55,756 nucleotides of DNA from the IMG/VR virus record IMGVR_UViG_3300021519_000002, positions 1 to 55,756 of that record; one strand, 5' to 3'. Made by a program: the position numbers and the translations under genes. Source of the DNA: a virus (taxonomy: Duplodnaviria; Caudoviricetes). The notes below the pieces were generated by a model, which worked only from the letters and a program-made list of their open reading frames with translations, was not told where the DNA came from and made no database searches. Shown piece after piece: positions 17,918-29,972 of this stretch. How positions within the stretch are numbered: the stretch's first letter is position 1; each line of letters starts with the position of its first letter.

Positions 17918-18907
17918 TTAATTGTGACGACCGTTTTCACGGTCATATTTTATGTACGCTTCAATCTGCTTCTGCTTACGAACGGGATTTTCCCAAGCCC
18001 CAGATTCCTTCATCATCCGAACTCTTTCGGGTGACAAAATCACCTGACGATTAGAACCGCCATAAGATGTAGAAGATTCGCGTCCAGCACTTCCCACAAT
18101 ATTCCTCGGTCGTCTTTCACTACGGACATCTTTCTCACTACCATCATTGTAGCGATGTGGCAACTCTTTTTGCAAGCGGCTATCCAATTCCTCCCAATAA
18201 TCAGAATCGGAGGGGTTCCAGCCCTGAGTCGTCATCAACTCATCAACCTTCTTGGCGATCCTGCTGTCCTTGTCAGTTCCAGAAGGGTCGTACCATTTAT
18301 GGGTATTTACCCACTTGGAAGCCATCCGCTGGACTTCAGGATCAACCGTTGAGGATTCTTCCTGCGGCTTCTTTAAGTCTTGATTGGCCTGATTGTGCTG
18401 ATAGTTCAGGTTCCGCACATCCTCATGGGCGCTCTGCCACAGAGTCTGAGCCTCAACCATAGCCTGACCATCATTGTTGTCAGTGGCCTCCGCAAGCTTC
18501 ATTTTTGCGTATTCAAGGCGTACTTGAGCATCTTCTATGTTCTTTTCGATGCGAGTAACGTGTTCTGCCTTGGTATTACGCTCAACTTGACCCAATCGCC
18601 GCCTAAAATCCTCGTTTTCACGCTGAAGAGCCGTCAAACGAGCATCTTTTTCCTGATTTGTGGTGCGAATCAGGTCTTTTTTGGCCCTGCGACGATTCCT
18701 CTTGGCTTGCCTCAGTTCGTCATTGTCATTGGGATGGTCGTTATCTTCTTCCGCAACCGTCCCACCCTCCGCTTGTTCTGTTACCTCGACATTTTCATCG
18801 CCTTCTTCAGAACCAAGCAGCATATCTTCCGGCAAAGTCACCGTGGCAGACCCATCTTGGGACTCCTTGACGGCAATCTCTGGTTTTTTCTCTATTGTTT
18901 CAGCCAT
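17918..18907 (-). CDS. Capsid scaffolding protein (329 aa)
   Basis: Acidic N-terminus, long coiled coil, W...HKWY and YWEELD.RL motifs, C-terminal LSPE...M helix; position. Confidence 0.7.
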   Translation of the reverse strand: MAETIEKKPEIAVKESQDGSATVTLPEDMLLGSEEGDENVEVTEQAEGGTVAEEDNDHPNDNDELRQAKRNRRRAKKDLIRTTNQEKDARLTALQRENEDFRRRLGQVERNTKAEHVTRIEKNIEDAQVRLEYAKMKLAEATDNNDGQAMVEAQTLWQSAHEDVRNLNYQHNQANQDLKKPQEESSTVDPEVQRMASKWVNTHKWYDPSGTDKDSRIAKKVDELMTTQGWNPSDSDYWEELDSRLQKELPHRYNDGSEKDVRSERRPRNIVGSAGRESSTSYGGSNRQVILSPERVRMMKESGAWENPVRKQKQIEAYIKYDRENGRHN

Positions 18908-18916
18908 TGTTATCTC

Positions 18917-19372
18917 CTAGACGTAAGCTTTAAAGGCAAGCGGATTGCCAGAAACCCTTGCGATCAGTTCGTGATCGTTCAGAGTCATAAACAACACGGA
19001 TTCTTCGTCCCTGTCACTGCCGGGAACCCTTATCTCCCAGCGATCACCGCCCCACTTGGGAACGCGAACGTAATCACCAACCTGCGCCCATGAACCTTCG
19101 GGCCATGATTGCATCGTGTCTCGGTTCTTGTAAGCCAGTGGCCCAACACATACAACTTTGCCGATCATGTTGTTCCACTTCTCGTTCTCCTTGGTTTCTT
19201 CAACCAGAACGATGAACCCAGTCTTCCGCTTAATACGTCGTAGCTGAACAATTACCCTTCCACCAAATGGCTCCATCCCCGGTTCAACATTGGGGAAGGC
19301 CCATTCCATATCCTTGGGATCAGGGATATCGTTTGATGCCTCATATGTCACGATCTTAGGTATTGCACTCAT
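18917..19372 (-). CDS. groES: GroES-like co-chaperonin
   Basis: PFGGRVIV, GKVVCVGPLAY, W.QVGDYV...KWGG, LNDHELIA motifs. Confidence 0.85.
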   Translation of the reverse strand: MSAIPKIVTYEASNDIPDPKDMEWAFPNVEPGMEPFGGRVIVQLRRIKRKTGFIVLVEETKENEKWNNMIGKVVCVGPLAYKNRDTMQSWPEGSWAQVGDYVRVPKWGGDRWEIRVPGSDRDEESVLFMTLNDHELIARVSGNPLAFKAYV

Positions 19373-19448: not shown

Positions 19449-19628
19449 TTATTCTTTATTTTTTTCCTCATCCAACATAAAGTCGATCATGTCCATCGTC
19501 TTTTGGAGGCCAATGTTTTCACCCACCATGCGCTGGTACACATCCCAACTCCCCGCAGAACCAAGAGCCAAAGCCATAGCAATTTCTGCTTGCCTCAACT
19601 TGATCCTGTGGATTAATTGTTCAATCAT
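19449..19628 (-). CDS. Small helical head-region protein (59 aa)
   Basis: Own translation: MIEQLIHRIKLRQAEIAMALALGSAGSWDVYQRMVGENIGLQKTMDMIDFMLDEEKNKE; ATGA overlap with the upstream ORF. Confidence 0.7.
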   Translation of the reverse strand: MIEQLIHRIKLRQAEIAMALALGSAGSWDVYQRMVGENIGLQKTMDMIDFMLDEEKNKE

Positions 19629-19780
19629 TTTTGTTTTTTGACATTCGACAATCCACCTTTGGGCTTGCTCGATTGTCCACCCTTGGGTTGGAGCGATGTT
19701 CCATTAAGCTTCTCACCCATAGCCAACCGCTTGTGCATAGGGACGTTGATGCTCTTTTGTTCCTGTTCTGATACAGCCAT
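19625..19780 (-). CDS. Small basic protein (51 aa) with two PKGG motifs
   Basis: Own translation: MAVSEQEQKSINVPMHKRLAMGEKLNGTSLQPKGGQSSKPKGGLSNVKKQK; AAGGAG RBS. Confidence 0.7.
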   Translation of the reverse strand: MAVSEQEQKSINVPMHKRLAMGEKLNGTSLQPKGGQSSKPKGGLSNVKKQK

Positions 19781-19790
19781 GTCTATCTCC

Positions 19791-22187
19791 TTATTGTGGT
19801 GCAGGTTCTGCCTGCGTTTGTGCTACTTGTTGAATTGTTTCATGCGTTAGCTTTGCGTTCTCAATGGCAATCCTTGCTTGATTGTCAACCACATGCTCCT
19901 GCATCTCATTCTGCATCTTTGCTTGTGCCAGTTGATTGTCAGCAGCATCCTTCTGAGTCTTGCGCTGGGTCTCAGCCATGCTAGTGTCTTTAACCACTTG
20001 GGCATCAGGAGGCAGTTGTTGCTGTTGCCCTTTGCGTTGTTGCGCCATCTGCATGATGGATTGTAAAGCTTGCTGAAACTGTCCAAATACTTGCTGGCTG
20101 TCCAACATTACATGAGCGCCAACAGTCGTGTACACCTTATCAATGATTGCCGTCAACTTGGGATCGTCATAGTCGTCTATAGGCTTGCCCATAGAATTCT
20201 CAACGTACCCATTGGAACGATTCAAATACCAGAGTGTCATGTGCTGCTTTACATGCTCAATCAGGTTGTTGAGATAGTTGGGATCGACAAACGGGGACTG
20301 CCCCAAGAAAGGATTCATGGCAAACTGCAAGTGATCCTGAATGTGCGCGATGTGATCTTGCTGTAGATAAGCATAAGCAGGCTGTCCAATCATCATTGCA
20401 GCATTCTCATCTGCTGATGTTCGCTGTTCAGGAGAAGGAGTGTCCTTCAACAACTCATTGATGTTGGGAACCTTCATCTGTTTCAATACACGACTCAGAA
20501 CATTGCTTATGTTAAATTGTTGAGGGTGCTTGTCTGCCAGAGCCAGTACAGCTTGGTTCTGTGCCATCCGCTGTGTCTCAGAGAAGATGTGCGGATCGCT
20601 GACAGGCACCACATCCGTGTTCTTCTCAAAGTCCTCACGGGTGATCTCCAGATCAACCATTACATCGCTTTTGATCATCTCGTCAAAATGCCAACGATTC
20701 AAGCGACACAGAACCTTAAGCACCCGTGCTTGAGAGTCATGCAACCGTGCATGAATAGCACTGAACACAGCAGCACCTTGCTCAATCAAAGCTTGCGTTG
20801 TGCCTACAGGAGTGTTGGCAGTTACATCAGCAATCTTCTCTTCGCTGGTAGTAATCACACCCTTAGCAGCAGCGTCCAACCATCCCAGCAATTGGAACAG
20901 CACATCACTAGGAGGATTGAAAGGCATCGGCATAGCAATCTGCCGGATGTCCTGTACTCCCGGTGCGCCTTCAATCTCAATCACCTGAGTCACATCAACT
21001 TGGGCGCTTTGACCACTGATCTTTGCACCCTTCAACTTCAGCATGGTTGCCGTGTTGTTGATATGCGCTGTGTCCAGCAAAGCCCTCAATGCGCCTGTCA
21101 ATGCAGCAGACAGACCACCAATCAGTTGTGGCAGTCCAATTGCATATGCACCCCTCCACGGGATAAACTTGAACTCAACCACCCAATCAAGCTTGGTGCG
21201 AGTGTCATCTTTCTCTTCCCAGTTCCTGTACAGACCAACAACCTCATTGCTGAGTTCGTCAATCATCAATATGTACGGAGCGTATTCACCTTTTGTTTTG
21301 TTGTCGTCTTCCAGTTCAAGAAAACAATAGATGTGGTAAACCTTGCGGATACCATCCTTGTTTGATTCAAACTGCTTGCCTTCAATCTTGTTGTTGGCCT
21401 GCTCAACCTTGTTCTGATCCAGAGTCCCACTGGCTTTAGCCGCATTGATATCACGGTACATACCAGTGCGGATACGCCGGTCAAACTCATACTGGGTCAG
21501 TTCATGGACTTCGGCAGCGCGAGGTGACGTATAGAAATTGGTTGCAGCAAACGGCAAGATCACCCTGTCAATAGGTAGAAACTCTACCGTGGGCCTCCTC
21601 TTTTGCTCATCAAACCACAGCTTGAAGTATTGCGATCCACCCAGAGGAAGCTGGGTAAGTAATTGCTCTTCCTCATCCCTGAACTCTTCAATCTGTTCCT
21701 GAATCTGCCAGTTAAGGAAATCACGTTTTCGTTCTGACTTAGCAGCCTTGACATCATCAATCTTGCCAATCACCTTGGTCTTGACAGGACCATCCGGCGG
21801 GAACAATTCCTTGATAGCACGGGCAGCAAAGTCTACACAGCCTTCTGCCATAGCAGGATGGACTACCTTGCTGGCACCCATAAAGGTAGCACCACCGGGG
21901 GCATCATTGCCCAGCCCAGTACGCTTCAATCCTTCTTCGTATTGCTTGTCCCTCTGTTCTCGCGCAGCTTTGTCAGTTTCCAGAAGATCAAGGTAACGTG
22001 ACGATAGTTCCCTTATATCTGGGCCACTAATAGTGTCAGCCAGATTGTCATAGAACTCCGGGTTAAACTCAGGGCCATCATCCATTGTGATAATGGCAGA
22101 ACCATCAGGTTGCTCCTCAGTTTGCATGTCAGGAAGATCAACAATGGCACTGCCGTCGTCCTGCTCTTCCATATCATAGTCAGCCAT
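19791..22187 (-). CDS. Portal protein (P22-like podovirus type)
   Basis: 798 aa; GASKVVHP.MAE, LPLGGS.YFK, TPVGTTQALIEQG...SAIHARLH, VVPVSDP; Gln-rich helical C-terminus. Confidence 0.9.
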   Translation of the reverse strand: MADYDMEEQDDGSAIVDLPDMQTEEQPDGSAIITMDDGPEFNPEFYDNLADTISGPDIRELSSRYLDLLETDKAAREQRDKQYEEGLKRTGLGNDAPGGATFMGASKVVHPAMAEGCVDFAARAIKELFPPDGPVKTKVIGKIDDVKAAKSERKRDFLNWQIQEQIEEFRDEEEQLLTQLPLGGSQYFKLWFDEQKRRPTVEFLPIDRVILPFAATNFYTSPRAAEVHELTQYEFDRRIRTGMYRDINAAKASGTLDQNKVEQANNKIEGKQFESNKDGIRKVYHIYCFLELEDDNKTKGEYAPYILMIDELSNEVVGLYRNWEEKDDTRTKLDWVVEFKFIPWRGAYAIGLPQLIGGLSAALTGALRALLDTAHINNTATMLKLKGAKISGQSAQVDVTQVIEIEGAPGVQDIRQIAMPMPFNPPSDVLFQLLGWLDAAAKGVITTSEEKIADVTANTPVGTTQALIEQGAAVFSAIHARLHDSQARVLKVLCRLNRWHFDEMIKSDVMVDLEITREDFEKNTDVVPVSDPHIFSETQRMAQNQAVLALADKHPQQFNISNVLSRVLKQMKVPNINELLKDTPSPEQRTSADENAAMMIGQPAYAYLQQDHIAHIQDHLQFAMNPFLGQSPFVDPNYLNNLIEHVKQHMTLWYLNRSNGYVENSMGKPIDDYDDPKLTAIIDKVYTTVGAHVMLDSQQVFGQFQQALQSIMQMAQQRKGQQQQLPPDAQVVKDTSMAETQRKTQKDAADNQLAQAKMQNEMQEHVVDNQARIAIENAKLTHETIQQVAQTQAEPAPQ

Positions 22188-24504: not shown

Positions 24505-27500
24505 CTATCCCTTTTTCTTTCGCATCAGTTCCCACTGCATTTGGGCTTTACCCACTCGACCACCTTTGGCCTTAGTTATATCGTAGTCTTCAGTATCATA
24601 AGTGCCGCGATTACCAATGGCTGACTTTATATAACGTGGATCAAACACTCCAAGATTCTTGACGTTCTTCCCAAAGCCCTCATGGATTTCTTGCATGTAC
24701 ATCGCATCATGCCCCAGTTTCTTGGCAGTCTGAATAACTTGCGGGTCTTCTATCCACGACCAGTCACCAGTTGCCAGCTTCTCCCTTATCTGAGCAGGAG
24801 TCTTCTTGTGGTGTATTGACCAGATGCTATCGGCCTTTGGCAAGTGTTTCGCCAGCCTCTCAACATGCTCTGGGTTCTCATAGTCAAAAGGATTCTTTAC
24901 CTGTACATGAACAGGGTACACAGCACCAGAGGATTCATCTCTCAGCTTGTTACCGCCAGCATACTCATTGGCGAACCCCTTGCTGGGAGTCAGGAACGTC
25001 ATGCCTCTGTTGCCAGTGCTGAACTCCCTGATCCCGCCCTCTGAGCGAAGCTTTTCATTGACTCCGTTCTTTCCATAGTGCCTTGAGCCATGATACAACC
25101 GGCGCTTCTCCGTACTCTCAGCAAGATACTTCTTCTTGTTTGCAGCGGCCTGCTCTTTGGTAGGATGGACATCTCCACCACCATTGAATCCATAGTCCTT
25201 CAGATTGATCGGCTTCTCTCGCGGTAGGTCAGAGGCACCAGCCTTATTGTTAATCCTCTGCACCTCCTCATCAGGCAACACCTTCTTCACCTTCATCGCA
25301 CCACCAATCAACCAGTTCCCAGTCATGTTGGGATTGGTCTTGTAGCGGTAATGACCACCCTTGGGAACCTGATCAGTAATGTGCGCTTTGACTGCTACAA
25401 GCTTTCCCTTCGCATTCGTTCCACGCTTGTTGGCCTCTGACTGCCAGTCCACATCGTTTGGCATGTCCACTTCAGCCCACACTTGATTGCTTGGACGACG
25501 GTCAGGCTTATTCATGCTTGGATCGGACTTCTCACCAATGTGAGTAGCTACAGGTAGATCACCAGCATGCCAGCCCGGACGGTTAGCAAGAGGCCCAATC
25601 TTTGACTTGACCTTATCACCAGTCTTCTCACCAGCCTTTGCCTCAACCCACTTGTCCTTCTCAACAGGAGTTTTGGAGTCCACAAACAGTGGGAACAACT
25701 TGCCGGGATGGTTCTTGTCTACTCGGAATAGCTTATAGGCAGGCACCGTGCTTTTGGGTTCCTTGACGCTGCCACCCTTTGAAAACTCTGGTTCTTGCTT
25801 TAATAAATTTGCAGCATCTTTATGTCCAAATTTATTAAGCCATTTAATTTGATTGCCTAATTCCATAAATCCTAAATCATGGATGGATTTATCATCTTCA
25901 TCAATATGATCTCCTGCATTTTCTATTCTGTGTATTGGAATTTTAATATTTGTATTTTTAGCCGCATGTATTCTATGTGAACCAGTCAGTGCCTCATCAC
26001 CTCTTCCTACATCGTATGTAAGTATTGGCCTTCCTTTCCATCCTAATTTTTTCATTGAATTAATTAATAAAGATAATTTTTTCTTGTCTCTTATTCCATG
26101 TGGGGGTTCTATGCTACTAGCAGATACATAATGAGTTGCTTCCTTGACGCTGCCACCACCAGCTTTATTCACGCCATACTTAGCCTTGATGTATTTCACA
26201 GCTTTGCCAGTATCACCATCTAGCTTGTCGTGCTTGCCAGACAATGTATTTTCCAAAGCCTGCTTGTTGTCTTTATCTTCCAGATATCGTGCATGCCTAT
26301 GCCACGGGTAATGAGCAGCAATGATGTCCTTCGGCATGACATCACTCAATACAAACGGTGACTGCCAATGCTCTTTAGGAACTTGGAACTCCAGCGTAGG
26401 TTTTTCTTCTGCCTTCCCATAGAACGGAGTCTCGCCAGCATAGATAGCCTTTGGCCCTTCAATGCCCTTGGCATGCTTGAACAGCAAGCCCTCCTTCTCA
26501 ATCTTGCGAAGGTTGTCTCCATCAGTTTGGTGATACAGGCGAACGTGACCTTCCTTAATAGGAGTACTCCCCGGCTCATCAGGGATTGACTTGATGCTGC
26601 CGCCACTAGCCTTGTCAAAAGCTGACTTGACCTCAGTCCCTTTGTTCCATGCGTAGATGTCGCTTGGGTAACTCCATAACTTTTTTGGGTCTGTCTCATT
26701 CGACGCTCTTGGCCCAATGTCATACACTTGACGAGCAACTAAAGCATGACCCGGAGCCAATGTTCTGGCATGCCGATCAAAAGCAAACATATCAAAATCA
26801 CGATGACCTCTTTTATCAACAGTGACTGGGAATTCATGCAGCATCTTTGCCTTGATGTGCATAGGCACAACAGCCCCAACCTCGCCTTCCATTCCTTTAT
26901 GTCCACCTTGTGCAGCATAGCTTGATGCAACATACGGGGAGGTTGATGCAAACGTGGCGTAATTAGGACGGGCCTCACCTTTCATAAAACCTTCAGGCAT
27001 TTCTTGATAACCATGACCGCCACGGTAAAGAACGTCTTTAACTTTGCTCTTCTCAAGGAACTTAGCTTTATCTTCTTTCTGGCTACCACCCCTAGCCTTA
27101 TGCTGGATCACATGCACTGAGTTGCCCTCATGCACCAGTCCACCCTTGGCTTCCCTGTGGACAATCTTCATCATGTGTTCGTTGCCGGGGAAGACTACAA
27201 AGTTGCGAGTTCCTTCTCCATCTTTTCTTGAGCCAGCGTCCAAGTACTTGATGCCGGGGATGCCTGCATTTTTAAGCCAATCACTTGCCGCATTGCGTGA
27301 GCCACCCAATCCCTCCCCAATCGCACTGTATAGAGATTCGCCTCTTAACTTATTAGAAGCCACTTTCTCTCCATTCGGCAGAACAGTTTGACCTAACTTG
27401 TCTTGCTTGAACAACGCCTGCACATCAGGATGTTGCTCACTCAGCGGCTTGTCCCAATCCAGCATCTTCTCAACATGCTCATGCGGTATGCGGATGTGGT

Positions 27501-28491
27501 AGAGGTGACCCCTCTTCCCGCTGACTTCTCCCCATTTTTCTTTTGACAATTTCATTGAGACACGCATCTCTGGAATCAAATTGTCTTCTACCAATTTGTT
27601 GAAAGAATCTATATCAAGTGTCTTTCTTCTATTTGATACAACCTTTGCCATTGACCTTCCATCAGGGTGATGCTTGGTGAGCGCATCCTCAAGAGACATG
27701 TCTCCTTCTGGTGTTTTAATGCGATCAATAAATTTGCCAAGTGTATTGGCATATCCCTGAGCAGTATTAGGTTTTTCAGCAAGGTAATGCCCATAGCCAA
27801 ACGCTTGCGCTCCCTCACCACTGCCAATCTTCGTAGGGTCAAACTCACCCAGCGGGTTATTGGCAGTGGGCTGCATAAGATGCGGGGAGCCATGATAAGC
27901 CTCAAGTTCCCGCTTCATCTGGTCAGTGGATGGACGGACATTGCCACCTTTGGATTTAGTAATATCTTTTTCTTTCGTATCGTATGTTCCACGATTACCA
28001 ATAGCTGACTTAATCTGGTTGCCCTTGAACATAACCACCTCATGAGGGTCACCTCGACCATGAGGGTCAGCATGCACAACACTGTCATAGCCCATAGCTT
28101 GAACTTTCTTTGCCCATTTCTTGTCCATCAGCAATGGGAACGATTTATCTCCATCAGCAAATATCTTTTGCGATCTATCTAAGATTCCGGGGTTGTCCAA
28201 CACCAATGGGTGCTTTGCCTGTACATGAACAGGCATCACATTCGTTCCCTGTTTGTATTCTTCTTTGTCACCGCCAATGTTGTGCATCGCCGGTTGATAC
28301 TGTGGGTTATTAGACAACCAAATAGCATGACCACTGAGTTCTGAATTAAAACCTCCGGGCTTGAATTCTTTAAAGTTGCGCGGAGTAGCGTGATACAAAC
28401 GCTCCTTAATCTTGCTGAGTTCCAAGAACTTTTTCTTGTTCTCTTCACTTTGCTTTTTTGGCAATACATCATTTGGTAATGACTTGGGCAT
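24505..28491 (-). CDS. Polyvalent multi-module protein (1328 aa): several ADP-ribosyltransferase-like domains plus a ParB/Srx domain
   Basis: Start chosen at 28491 (AAAGGA RBS); modules open with LYHAT, AYHGS, LYRGG, LYHQT, LYHGS; two end IKSAIGNRGTYD (ART-PolyVal-like); LTGSHR ParB motif; xxxGG linkers between modules. Confidence 0.75.
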   Translation of the reverse strand: MPKSLPNDVLPKKQSEENKKKFLELSKIKERLYHATPRNFKEFKPGGFNSELSGHAIWLSNNPQYQPAMHNIGGDKEEYKQGTNVMPVHVQAKHPLVLDNPGILDRSQKIFADGDKSFPLLMDKKWAKKVQAMGYDSVVHADPHGRGDPHEVVMFKGNQIKSAIGNRGTYDTKEKDITKSKGGNVRPSTDQMKRELEAYHGSPHLMQPTANNPLGEFDPTKIGSGEGAQAFGYGHYLAEKPNTAQGYANTLGKFIDRIKTPEGDMSLEDALTKHHPDGRSMAKVVSNRRKTLDIDSFNKLVEDNLIPEMRVSMKLSKEKWGEVSGKRGHLYHIRIPHEHVEKMLDWDKPLSEQHPDVQALFKQDKLGQTVLPNGEKVASNKLRGESLYSAIGEGLGGSRNAASDWLKNAGIPGIKYLDAGSRKDGEGTRNFVVFPGNEHMMKIVHREAKGGLVHEGNSVHVIQHKARGGSQKEDKAKFLEKSKVKDVLYRGGHGYQEMPEGFMKGEARPNYATFASTSPYVASSYAAQGGHKGMEGEVGAVVPMHIKAKMLHEFPVTVDKRGHRDFDMFAFDRHARTLAPGHALVARQVYDIGPRASNETDPKKLWSYPSDIYAWNKGTEVKSAFDKASGGSIKSIPDEPGSTPIKEGHVRLYHQTDGDNLRKIEKEGLLFKHAKGIEGPKAIYAGETPFYGKAEEKPTLEFQVPKEHWQSPFVLSDVMPKDIIAAHYPWHRHARYLEDKDNKQALENTLSGKHDKLDGDTGKAVKYIKAKYGVNKAGGGSVKEATHYVSASSIEPPHGIRDKKKLSLLINSMKKLGWKGRPILTYDVGRGDEALTGSHRIHAAKNTNIKIPIHRIENAGDHIDEDDKSIHDLGFMELGNQIKWLNKFGHKDAANLLKQEPEFSKGGSVKEPKSTVPAYKLFRVDKNHPGKLFPLFVDSKTPVEKDKWVEAKAGEKTGDKVKSKIGPLANRPGWHAGDLPVATHIGEKSDPSMNKPDRRPSNQVWAEVDMPNDVDWQSEANKRGTNAKGKLVAVKAHITDQVPKGGHYRYKTNPNMTGNWLIGGAMKVKKVLPDEEVQRINNKAGASDLPREKPINLKDYGFNGGGDVHPTKEQAAANKKKYLAESTEKRRLYHGSRHYGKNGVNEKLRSEGGIREFSTGNRGMTFLTPSKGFANEYAGGNKLRDESSGAVYPVHVQVKNPFDYENPEHVERLAKHLPKADSIWSIHHKKTPAQIREKLATGDWSWIEDPQVIQTAKKLGHDAMYMQEIHEGFGKNVKNLGVFDPRYIKSAIGNRGTYDTEDYDITKAKGGRVGKAQMQWELMRKKKG
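25759..26157. repeat. 18-bp direct repeat flanking the AT-rich ParB/Srx module
   Basis: ttccttgacgctgccacc at 25759-25776 and 26140-26157, 381 bp (127 codons) apart; encodes GGSVKE. Confidence 0.9.
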
Positions 28492-28541: not shown

Positions 28542-29972
28542 TCACGCAGCATAGGGGTTGGTCCTCGACCTCTTGTTGTATATCTCAGCATCACTGATAT
28601 CACTCTGGTCAAAGTCCTGTCGCTCTGGTGCATCAATCGATATCCATCCACCATCCCTCAAGTATCTCAAGCCCTGACTGATGCAGTCCACGAACTCATC
28701 ATGCACAGTCTCGGGGAAGGAGCATATCTGACTCACCATCCCTTCAGCCCAGTCCCTCACATAACCTTTGCGGTTGCTGCTCTCAGGCACCCACACTCGA
28801 CCAGCCTTGATGATGTTCGCCACAATGCTCAGGCGCTGTAGCTTGTCAGCCTTGCCGGGGTTGTAAGCGTGGACCGGAAGGTGAGCGCGTTGCAAATCCT
28901 GTATCAAGCTGATCCCTGCGCTCTTGTCCTCCACCAGTATCAAGTCGATCAGTTTCTTGTTCTTTCCATCCCCGTAGACCATCTCGTATTCCTTGATCAC
29001 CTTGGGGCGCAGATCAGGGTACTGAAGATGCTCCTGCCAGCAGTCCAAGACCATTACGCACATGCCACCGTCCAATGGCTGGAAGACTCCCAACGTGATC
29101 GATCCTGTCGGGTCATTAATTGTTTTGTCACTGGTGGCGCAGTCGTAGGACTGGATGATGAACTCCAGTTTTGGGAAGGGTTTCCCATCAGGCCACAGCC
29201 GGAACCAATCCCTCTTGACGATGCCACCCTCTTCAGGGTCGATGATCTCGGCATGTATCTCCTGCCTGCCCAGATTCGTCCCCTCATATTGGAGTATCTG
29301 CTTCTGAAAAGATGGCGCAAGGTTCTTGATGTTGGAGTAAGTCGAGGCGCGAGTAATGACAACGTCGTCGTCCTCCCTACCAATCAGATCAAGGATCACA
29401 TCCTTCGGCTTCGGGGTGGTCGAACAGATCAGCTTCGTGCGAGTTCCCAGCCTGATCCCGAACTGGATCATGTCCCATGACTCTTTGAGGTACTCCCATG
29501 CAGCCAACTCGTCAAGCCAGCCACCGTGAAACTGTGGCCCCCGGAACCGCTCAGGCTCTGATGCTGGTATCCCCTTGATCAGCGATCCATTGGTCAGGTA
29601 TATCTCATGCAGGCTGCTGTTGTACTTTGCCACCAGAAGGCTTGGGATGACCTTTAGCAGACCGCTGTCGCCTTCAAAGCAAACCCCTTTGAGGTCTCCC
29701 GAAGTTGGAGCAGAAACCAGCCAGCGGGTCTGTGGTTGGGTCCAAGCCCACCATGAAAGTGTTTCAGCCGCTGCTCTCGATTTTCCCGCACCCCTACCCG
29801 CCAAAATTAACCAACAATTCCACCAGTCCCCCGGTGGCTCGATCTGGTGCTTGTGGGCCTGCTCCTGCAACCACTTGTACTGCCAGTTGAAGATAGCCTG
29901 AGCATGCGGGGTCAGCTTGCCATACTGCTCCACCATCCCTTGATCCAACAAGATATCGTCAACGGCGCTCAT
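28542..29972 (-). CDS. terL: Terminase large subunit
   Basis: Walker A LAGRGAGKS, Walker B WLDE, TTPKP, and nuclease motifs QSYD, VEDKSAG, HDEFVD. Confidence 0.95.
   Translation of the reverse strand: MSAVDDILLDQGMVEQYGKLTPHAQAIFNWQYKWLQEQAHKHQIEPPGDWWNCWLILAGRGAGKSRAAAETLSWWAWTQPQTRWLVSAPTSGDLKGVCFEGDSGLLKVIPSLLVAKYNSSLHEIYLTNGSLIKGIPASEPERFRGPQFHGGWLDELAAWEYLKESWDMIQFGIRLGTRTKLICSTTPKPKDVILDLIGREDDDVVITRASTYSNIKNLAPSFQKQILQYEGTNLGRQEIHAEIIDPEEGGIVKRDWFRLWPDGKPFPKLEFIIQSYDCATSDKTINDPTGSITLGVFQPLDGGMCVMVLDCWQEHLQYPDLRPKVIKEYEMVYGDGKNKKLIDLILVEDKSAGISLIQDLQRAHLPVHAYNPGKADKLQRLSIVANIIKAGRVWVPESSNRKGYVRDWAEGMVSQICSFPETVHDEFVDCISQGLRYLRDGGWISIDAPERQDFDQSDISDAEIYNKRSRTNPYAA

Follow-up and report, generated by a model that had tools for sequence, protein, structure and literature searches.

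Locus of the polyvalent protein P0001

The window analysed in this work is the complete virus record IMGVR_UViG_3300021519_000002 (Duplodnaviria; Caudoviricetes), which comprises 55,756 bp with direct terminal repeats and has nearly all genes on the minus strand. It encodes P0001, a protein of 1328 amino acids (aa), which is a shuffled phage polyvalent protein of a known kind (Iyer 2017). As described in the main text of that paper (PMC5512222), polyvalent proteins of phages and conjugative elements combine many (2-15) unrelated or repeated effector-type domains in one polypeptide, include ParB-like domains, are encoded beside portal and terminase genes, and are predicted to be packaged and injected. 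The open reading frame (ORF) of P0001 is open from the ATG at 28491 to the stop codon at 24505-24507 (Table 1). A GTG codon at 28545 on the minus strand is a candidate upstream start, which would add 18 aa and overlap the stop codon of the terminase gene.

The genes are ordered terminase large subunit (TerL), P0001, P0121 and portal, with P0121 showing a weak, below-threshold match to GP88 (PF17338, E 4.2e-4). An earlier note on this DNA, made from the sequence alone, had placed P0001 between terminase and portal. This stands as far as the packaging and head gene block is concerned, which is the position predicted for packaged polyvalent proteins (Iyer 2017), but the GP88-like gene separates P0001 from the portal gene.

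Table 1. Features of the P0001 locus and other genes discussed (window positions; all aa numbers refer to P0001)
Feature	Residues (aa)	Position	Strand	Description
Polyvalent protein ORF P0001	1-1328	24505..28491	-	1328 aa, 147 kDa, pI 9.4, no Cys
Module 1	1-183	27943..28491	-	ART-PolyVal; PF18760 53.1 bits, E 7.6e-14
Joint KSKGGNV	179-185	27937-27957	-	
Module 2	184-451	27139..27942	-	ART-related; post-joint helix PSTDQMKRELE at start
Joint EAKGGLV	447-453	27133-27153	-	
Stub ("module 3")	452-469	27085..27138	-	LVHEGNSVHVIQHKARGG; between two joints
Joint KARGGSQ	465-471	27079-27099	-	
Module 4	470-631	26599..27084	-	Divergent ART-PolyVal relative; LYRGG, FASTSP
Joint KASGGSI	627-633	26593-26613	-	
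Module 5	632-780	26152..26598	-	Compact alpha/beta domain; invariant RLYHQT
Joint KAGGGSV	776-782	26146-26166	-	
18-nt perfect direct repeat, copy 2		26140..26157		Joint before module 6
Module 6	781-907	25771..26151	-	ParB_N/Srx-like; motif ALTGSHRIHAA
Joint FSKGGSV	903-909	25765-25785	-	
18-nt perfect direct repeat, copy 1		25759..25776		Joint after module 6
Module 7	908-1106	25174..25770	-	phrog_30118, E 4.1e-65
Joint FNGGGDV	1102-1108	25168-25188	-	
Module 8	1107-1311	24559..25173	-	ART-PolyVal; PF18760 48.8 bits, E 1.6e-12
Joint KAKGGRV	1307-1313	24553-24573	-	
C-terminal tail of P0001		24508..24558	-	RVGKAQMQWELMRKKKG; after last joint; class A tail
Terminase large subunit		28542..29972	-	Terminase_6N, E 2.2e-25; upstream of P0001
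GP88-like ORF P0121		22187..24502 (from GTG: 24535)	-	771 aa from ATG, 782 from GTG
Portal protein		19791..22187	-	phrog_1216, E 1.2e-21
51-aa basic ORF after portal		19625-19780	-	PMHKRLAM, two PKGG, KKQK end
Scaffold-like protein		17918-18907	-	329 aa, charged, helical
P0386		13268-14695	-	475 aa, pI 10.3, Gly/Lys/Met-rich, low-complexity
P0387		53683-54906	-	407 aa, Q/A/N/S-rich, early region

A conserved joint marks the module borders

P0001 consists of seven globular modules, which represent at least four families, and an 18-aa stub, and is interrupted by eight copies of a short motif fitting the pattern [K/F/E]-[A/S/N]-[K/R/S/G]-G-G-x-[V/I/Q], hereafter called the joint. All eight were found by residue and window coordinates where the earlier note had seen linkers. 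The core pattern [ASGN][KRSG]GG.[VIQ] occurs eight times in P0001, whereas 20,000 shuffled versions of its sequence gave 0.146 copies on average and never more than 3. The protein has 17 GG dipeptides in total, and the nine beyond the joints are internal to modules and deviate from the pattern. Searches of the protein collection revealed 1884 long and 668 short relatives, which apparently come from freshwater phages of about 55 kb. In the 120 best of the long relatives (hereafter the 120 long homologues), a similar pattern is found 355 times, with 19.7 expected and at most 35 in 200 shuffles, and the enriched residues give the consensus K-A-K-G-G-x-V.

The ends of local alignments (BLAST) between P0001 and these homologues fall within 12 residues of a joint in 417 of 712 cases, where 15% would be expected. 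When aa 470-907 were compared with 1.84 billion representative sequences, 856 matches (E ≤ 0.001) started and stopped at the borders of modules 4, 5 and 6, in proteins ranging from single-module forms (127, 151 and 169 aa) to very large ones of up to 4035 aa. An AlphaFold2 model of module 7 has a predicted local distance difference test score (pLDDT) of 81.4, with values below 50 for both attached joints. Since alignment ends, matched stretches and the module 7 model all break at the joints, no domain was seen to straddle a linker, and the proposal that the linkers delimit autonomous modules is borne out by the alignment ends, the single-module proteins and the low pLDDT of the joints. An apparent homology across the joints at aa 447-471 (matched stretch 447-482) with gp40 of the Burkholderia phage Bp-AMP1 was rejected: the real similarity ends at the NFVVF strand and is followed by a low-identity extension.

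The modules are also shuffled between relatives, and elsewhere each is met alone or in a different order. We cut 385 related proteins at their joints and clustered the segments of at least 60 aa, which produced 279 families. Joints numbered 1047 (95 of the proteins have none) and connect 363 different ordered pairs of neighbouring families, with 179 families occurring to the left of a joint and 158 to the right. Module 7 stands before or after ADP-ribosyltransferase (ART) modules, and module 2 is found first or in the middle. Given these ordered pairs and the differing positions of modules, the homologues have no fixed architecture, in agreement with the mosaic and rapidly varying domain composition of polyvalent proteins (Iyer 2017). 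At the DNA level P0001 gave no match in phage records, and its protein matches there are partial, single-module and restricted to 15 records.

More distant polyvalent proteins have a joint after the module in 8 of 47, 6 of 80 and 1 of 19 representatives (modules 4, 5 and 6, respectively). Because these proteins carry the same modules without a KAKGG joint, the joint is a property of the phage lineage and not of the domains. Judged by its sequence, it appears to be conserved beyond the needs of a hinge.

Identity of the modules

Sequence comparisons suggest that at least four modules are ART-related and one is ParB/Srx-like, whereas two are unassigned. The ART-PolyVal domain is the commonest enzyme domain of polyvalent proteins according to the main text of PMC5512222, which describes a His (strand 1), Tyr (strand 2), Asp (strand 5) site and allows many copies per protein. 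A chain with multiple ARTs is therefore already known in kind, as several ART-PolyVal domains per protein are reported there (Iyer 2017).

Modules 1 and 8 exceed the gathering threshold of PF18760 (31.2 bits), which modules 2, 4, 5 and 7 do not reach alone, and their proposed ART-PolyVal nature is thus supported. They are paralogues (hhalign 100%), and module 1 ends with IKSAIGNRGTYD..DITKSKGG. The LYH and G-x-D motifs are kept in both and in their relatives; placing the Tyr column requires a family alignment.

The assignment of modules 2 and 4 to ART-related families likewise held, on the basis of hhalign and of matches of their family members to PF18760. Module 2 contains an ART-like N-terminal part (AYHGSPH..GEGAQAFGYGHY) and a closing NFVVF strand with variable inserts between them. 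Its own copy matches PF18760 with E 0.15, and it aligns to module 1 (hhalign 97.5%, E 6e-12) over 46 columns, corresponding to the first ~50 residues common to the ARTs. Among 13 members of its family, 10 match ART-PolyVal, 9 DUF3990, 2 the Exotoxin A catalytic domain and 1 PARP; gene 5 of phiGT1 is another relative. The second half of module 2 (LYxV..IEKMLDWDKPLSEQ..GIPGIKY..NFVVF) aligns to residues 739-842 of Bp-AMP1 gp40 with 30% identity (E 9e-15). This T7 gp16-type internal virion protein of 1665 aa resembles P0001 in that domain, but it has no KGGxV joint after it, and its gene belongs to the tail/core block of a phage from another family.

Module 4 aligns over its full length to modules 1 and 8 (hhalign 99.2% and 99.4%), and 12 of 14 members of its family match PF18760. 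Its invariant residues are Y20 R21 G22 ... E84, with Arg at the position of the strand-1 His of the family, from which we infer a putative R-S-E-like variant.

For module 5, support for the proposed ART identity is weak. No Pfam or PDB match was found by sequence, and the module is well modelled (AlphaFold2 pLDDT 92.3). In a Foldseek search of the PDB the best match was KptA, with E 0.098, probability 0.80 and a template modelling score of 0.33, and no match had E ≤ 0.001. Fourteen of the first 18 rows listed were KptA/Tpt1 RNA 2'-phosphotransferases (12) or diphtheria toxin (2). These non-significant fold matches point weakly to a possible KptA/Tpt1-like ART fold, as a lead and not as an assignment.

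Module 6 had been described as ParB/Srx-like, and its family supports this: matches to PF02195 were obtained for 11 of 19 members (best E 1.9e-5; the window copy has no match at E ≤ 0.1), and the family profile matches the ParB structure 7o0n (E 0.0058). Residues G57 S58 H59 R60 are invariant in the 19 sequences and include a conserved G-x-x-R-type loop, which we take to be the defining feature of the ParB_N/sulfiredoxin fold.

Module 7 is the most common module among the relatives (it accounts for the 668 short ones). Its model has no PDB match at E ≤ 0.001, and in BFVD only uncharacterised proteins were found at this level, together with a weak pointer to DUF7666/rIIB-like proteins. An ART identity was considered and rejected, with DarT in the top PDB rows at E 0.39-0.63 and a probability of at most 0.10; in the Atlas the nearest named clusters are ART families with scores of 0.78-0.79, below the counting level. 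The sequences of P0001 and P0121 gave nothing usable against the PDB, and the profiles of modules 2, 4 and 5 gave no match there. Scans of viral contigs revealed only five close relatives each for modules 4 and 5, and none for module 6.

DNA-level signs of recombination at the joints

The joints flanking module 6 share an 18-nt perfect direct repeat (Table 1), and the spacing of the two copies, 381 nt, equals exactly module 6. A further repeat of 71 nt, 80% identical, is present at the ends of modules 1 and 8. Codons were compared in 27 different joints, taken from the window and from related loci; these belong to related phages and are not independent of one another. In them, Ala is encoded by GCC in 56% of cases (background 22%) and the first Gly of the GG pair by GGT in 70% (background 33%). 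Because of the repeat around module 6 and the biased codons, we read the joints as recombination joints: they have the appearance of sites at which in-frame recombination can recur and whose peptide is conserved as well.

The same two signs would be expected if the joints were neutral scars, with cassettes exchanged through recombination between short common sequences and with a peptide that is simply tolerated as a flexible linker. However, synonymous sites vary among the eight joints of P0001 while the residues stay, conservation extends to the flanking residues and to the positional rules of stubs and tails described below, and the motif recurs in P0386, which is not a cassette array. We consider neutral scars a rather doubtful explanation.

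C-terminal tails, stubs and the GP88-like partner

The last joint of P0001 is followed by a short tail, and the neighbouring P0121, which starts with MATMAQMRMAL, terminates with a tail of the same class (A, defined below), NTMLLELTMRKKAK. Among the ORFs of the genome, an ending of the form M..EL..KK.. is present only in these two proteins. The C-termini of 100 of the 120 long homologues fall into four tail classes: A (..M..E[LM]..KKAK, 61 proteins), B (THAHHLEIEERPL, 20), C (GGS.SLL..FKD, 16) and D (3), and several of the 20 others look A-like. In the set of 385 proteins, tail B (87 copies), tail C (14) and strict tail A (39) are all terminal and never internal. The opposite rule applies to the helix PSxxQMRxxL, which occurs in 87 internal or N-terminal copies and in no terminal one. 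The stub PEEWxAEEHVNH, which the "module 3" stub of P0001 resembles (PEEWxAEEHVNHKAKGG in relatives), is flanked by joints on both sides 57 times.

In related phages the genes follow the order TerL, polyvalent protein (tail B or C), GP88-like protein (tail A) and portal, or the two middle proteins form one fused ORF with a single tail. Among the 120 homologues, 30 are fusions that include the whole GP88-like part. In the uncultured phage MW202545.1 the junction of the fusion, KAEGGNVQPSIAQMRMAL, is a joint followed by a sequence equal to the N-terminus of P0121 from the window. Every polypeptide that is made separately thus has a tail of its own. Since the next ORF has the same tail as P0001, the tail is most likely, judging from these sequences, a signal for the incorporation of each such polypeptide into the head.

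The GP88-like core is very conserved, with the cysteines C330, C337 and C354 invariant (motif NTCPGQTEGCGGG) and many histidines invariant as well. It gave no usable match in PHROGs, PDB or the Atlas and a weak one in Pfam. A programmed -1 frameshift from P0001 into P0121 was also considered, given the G AAA AAG sequence (24508-24522, minus strand) two codons before the stop and the open -1 frame. It was ruled out, as the frame of the second ORF differs among six relatives, where the alternative frames contain stops and the ORF has a start codon and ribosome-binding site of its own. The G AAA AAG sequence is not conserved in relatives either.

The joint motif in other proteins of the genome

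The basic protein P0386 contains four copies of the joint motif by the strict pattern and at least ten by eye ([YFK]x[KST]GGx[VI]), separated by low-complexity sequence, as well as a TIEGN..K.ANTKV....HDSA.GTG repeat in two copies. Neither Pfam nor PHROGs matched the protein, and seven motifs are retained in the homologue from MW202545.1. The small ORF after the portal gene has a homologue with PMHKKLAV in the Caulobacter phage RW. P0387 ends with YVAKGGLIKAKKYKG, a joint motif (VAKGGLI), and has no family match. The capsid protein, the scaffold-like protein and the portal lack the motif. Low-complexity runs rich in Met, Pro and Gln were observed in the GP88-like protein (aa ~50-145), in P0386 (aa ~85-125) and in the portal C-termini of relatives (L003 11786-14236, L009 7857-10388), and may represent a shared disordered "internal" region. 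A set of proteins cut by a single protease would show such a distribution of the motif, and so, just as well, would basic internal proteins with a binding motif in common.

In the latter case KGGxV would be a short motif by which basic internal head proteins (P0001, P0121, P0386 and the 51-aa ORF) bind packaged DNA or the inner surface of the capsid or portal, and it would stand at module borders because it is exposed there. The motif is lysine-rich and occurs in four or five proteins that are basic (pI 9.1-10.3), whereas the head proteins are acidic (pI 4.6-5.7); the Met/Pro/Gln-rich runs are common to P0121, P0386 and the portal C-termini of relatives. Phage RW, which has a portal 43.5% identical to that of the window and no polyvalent gene, shows only scattered single motif matches in the stretch examined, which also speaks for this reading. 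However, none of the libraries searched gave a known DNA- or capsid-binding motif of this form, the exact placement at module borders and the flanking DNA repeats would be left unexplained, and the head location of P0386 is itself only presumed. A binding role seems unlikely.

Are the joints cut?

The earlier note proposed that P0001 is cut at the GG linkers. In this reading the packaged chain would be a true polyprotein, processed at or beside each KAKGG|xV by a phage or host protease, and P0386 would be converted to small basic peptides. The seven-residue motif is indeed more specific than a hinge requires, the conserved GG stands at segment borders, and joints are also found before the first and after the last module of single-module proteins, where there is nothing to connect. 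Its presence in several basic proteins of one phage is what one enzyme's substrates would show. GG-X processing of core polyproteins is known from adenovirus and African swine fever virus, where it is performed by a cysteine protease encoded by a dedicated gene. These viruses likewise have Gly-Gly at the borders of internal virion segments, but no protease is recognisable among the 81 ORFs scanned in the window.

No peptidase family was detected in these ORFs (34 and 47 small ones, searched against Pfam and/or PHROGs, not all against both), in a scan that covers known families and that a novel protease could escape. P0001 itself has neither cysteine nor an HExxH motif. The capsid, scaffold-like and portal proteins are without the motif, and distant proteins with the same modules mostly lack the joint. 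Furthermore, the polyvalent and GP88-like proteins exist in fused and split forms with a tail only at true C-termini, which fits handling of the whole chain. The proposal of cutting is not supported, on four counts: no peptidase family, a motif absent from head proteins, its presence in P0386 and the DNA signs of recombination. Cutting at the joints is the less likely reading, possible but not needed for the data, and the full polyprotein model appears unlikely.

A broader variant would treat the KAKGGxV joints, the PSxxQMRxxL helices and the terminal tails as a lineage-specific processing-and-packaging code, read by a protease that the libraries do not recognise, with P0001, P0121 and P0386 loaded into the head and cut at GG into enzymes and basic peptides. 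The His/Cys-rich, portal-coupled GP88-like protein would be one candidate for such a protease. We regard this scheme, too, as improbable on present evidence; if true, phages would have an equivalent of the way in which adenovirus and African swine fever virus process their core polyproteins at GG-X.

Proposed role of P0001 and relation to known systems

We consider it reasonably probable that P0001 is a beads-on-a-string polyvalent effector, carried in the capsid and delivered with the DNA, in which standard joints serve as swap sites and the C-terminal tail as a head signal. The protein would be a chain of modules that fold and evolve independently of one another; it would be produced with the head genes and would most likely reach the host from inside the capsid, along with the DNA. 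The disordered joint (KAKGGxV) would act as a lineage-specific connector marking every module border, kept at the protein and partly at the DNA level, and would be the site of in-frame cassette swaps between phages. The short, strictly C-terminal tail would bring each separate polypeptide into the head. The modules, their borders and shuffling, the rules for where joints and tails stand and the repeat around module 6 are direct observations; packaging, delivery, the enzymatic activity of the modules and the role of the tail are what we infer from the comparisons presented above.

Several observations weigh against this reading. Tails B and C do not resemble tail A, though they occur in phages with homologous GP88-like proteins, so that a single receptor is unlikely to recognise every tail. 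Part of the conservation of tails B and C is accounted for by an overlap of their final residues with the start codon or ribosome-binding site of the following gene. The copies of the motif in P0386, with no globular modules between them, indicate that connecting domains is not the whole meaning of the joint, and the codon bias suffers from the relatedness of the phages whose joints were counted. The window's own modules 2, 5 and 6 reach no Pfam threshold. Finally, neither MuF nor another known head-anchoring domain was found with Pfam and PHROGs.

The last point, together with the failure to find there any signal of a known kind, would suit a late multi-enzyme protein that stays unpackaged in the cytoplasm and acts in the cell that produces the phage. 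However, the position of the gene in the packaging and head block is conserved, the protein is fused in a quarter of the long homologues (30/120) to a GP88-like protein that is itself translationally coupled to the portal, and related domains are present in the internal virion protein Bp-AMP1 gp40. Such a purely cytoplasmic role is very unlikely.

The capsid-carried effector proposed here resembles the polyvalent proteins of Iyer 2017 in having multiple domains, multiple ARTs and a ParB-like module, and in its location among the virion genes of a portal-terminase phage. It differs from them in lacking MuF, a zincin peptidase or another named anchoring or processing domain. Autoprocessing of polyvalent proteins was predicted, in the main text of PMC5512222, where a peptidase domain is present, and according to passages of Iyer 2022, ARTs encoded next to terminase or portal genes are likely packaged. 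The main text of Iyer 2017 (PMC5512222) does not contain the words "linker" or "glycine", nor does it describe a KAKGGxV joint, stubs, strictly terminal tails or a GP88-like partner. New with respect to that work are thus the standard joint, the short stubs, the strictly C-terminal tails and the tail common to the next ORF. Our literature search found no paper on the family of P0001 or on PF17338/GP88, and no study of that family by virion mass spectrometry.

T4 Alt is a late ART which travels in the head and enters the host together with the DNA, as stated in sections of PMC5512222 and PMC9503650. The comparison of P0001 with it is by analogy only. No protease gene was found in the phage of P0001, and the candidate signal is C-terminal. 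T4 Alt, in turn, is targeted by an N-terminal sequence that is removed by the T4 head protease. Encapsulin cargo-loading peptides and the coat-binding C-terminal helices of scaffold proteins are short C-terminal peptides that recruit cargo to an HK97-fold shell. The tail of P0001 may be compared to these as a C-terminal peptide after a flexible Gly-rich linker, again as an analogy and with no sequence similarity.

In an infected cell, polyvalent proteins are believed to act before any other phage protein, and almost none has been studied at the bench. The joint permits the automatic cutting of hundreds of proteins into modules, and the 279 segment families from 385 proteins provide a catalogue of candidate host-takeover or anti-defence domains, the majority of which are unannotated. 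It is also apparent from the joints how effector arsenals are rebuilt cassette by cassette. If the tails are head-targeting signals, they could be used for loading foreign cargo into capsids, and if the joints are cut, they would reveal a new phage processing system.

Other genes and relatives of the phage

The capsid protein of the window matches Phage_capsid_4 and Mu gpT. The C-terminus of the scaffold-like protein, LSPERVRMMKESGAWENP, is kept in MW202545.1 and RW; its faint likeness to tail A (SPERVRMMKE) was judged too weak to use. A GroES-like gene (Cpn10, E 3.2e-4; 18917-19372, minus strand) lies in the head block and is kept in MW202545.1 and in Caulobacter phage RW.

By its portal, the nearest named relative of the phage is the uncultured MW202545.1, whose "head to tail connecting protein" is 82% identical, followed by the Caulobacter phages RW/KcrB/RLK/GB2A at 43.5% identity. 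The group to which MW202545.1 belongs probably infects Burkholderiales. Relatives of the GP88-like protein were also observed on contigs of metagenome-assembled genomes labelled Rubrivivax, Betaproteobacteria, Burkholderiaceae and Paceibacterota (L046-L049; one of 54,419 bp). These are probably co-binned phage contigs, and their labels provide only a lead to the host.

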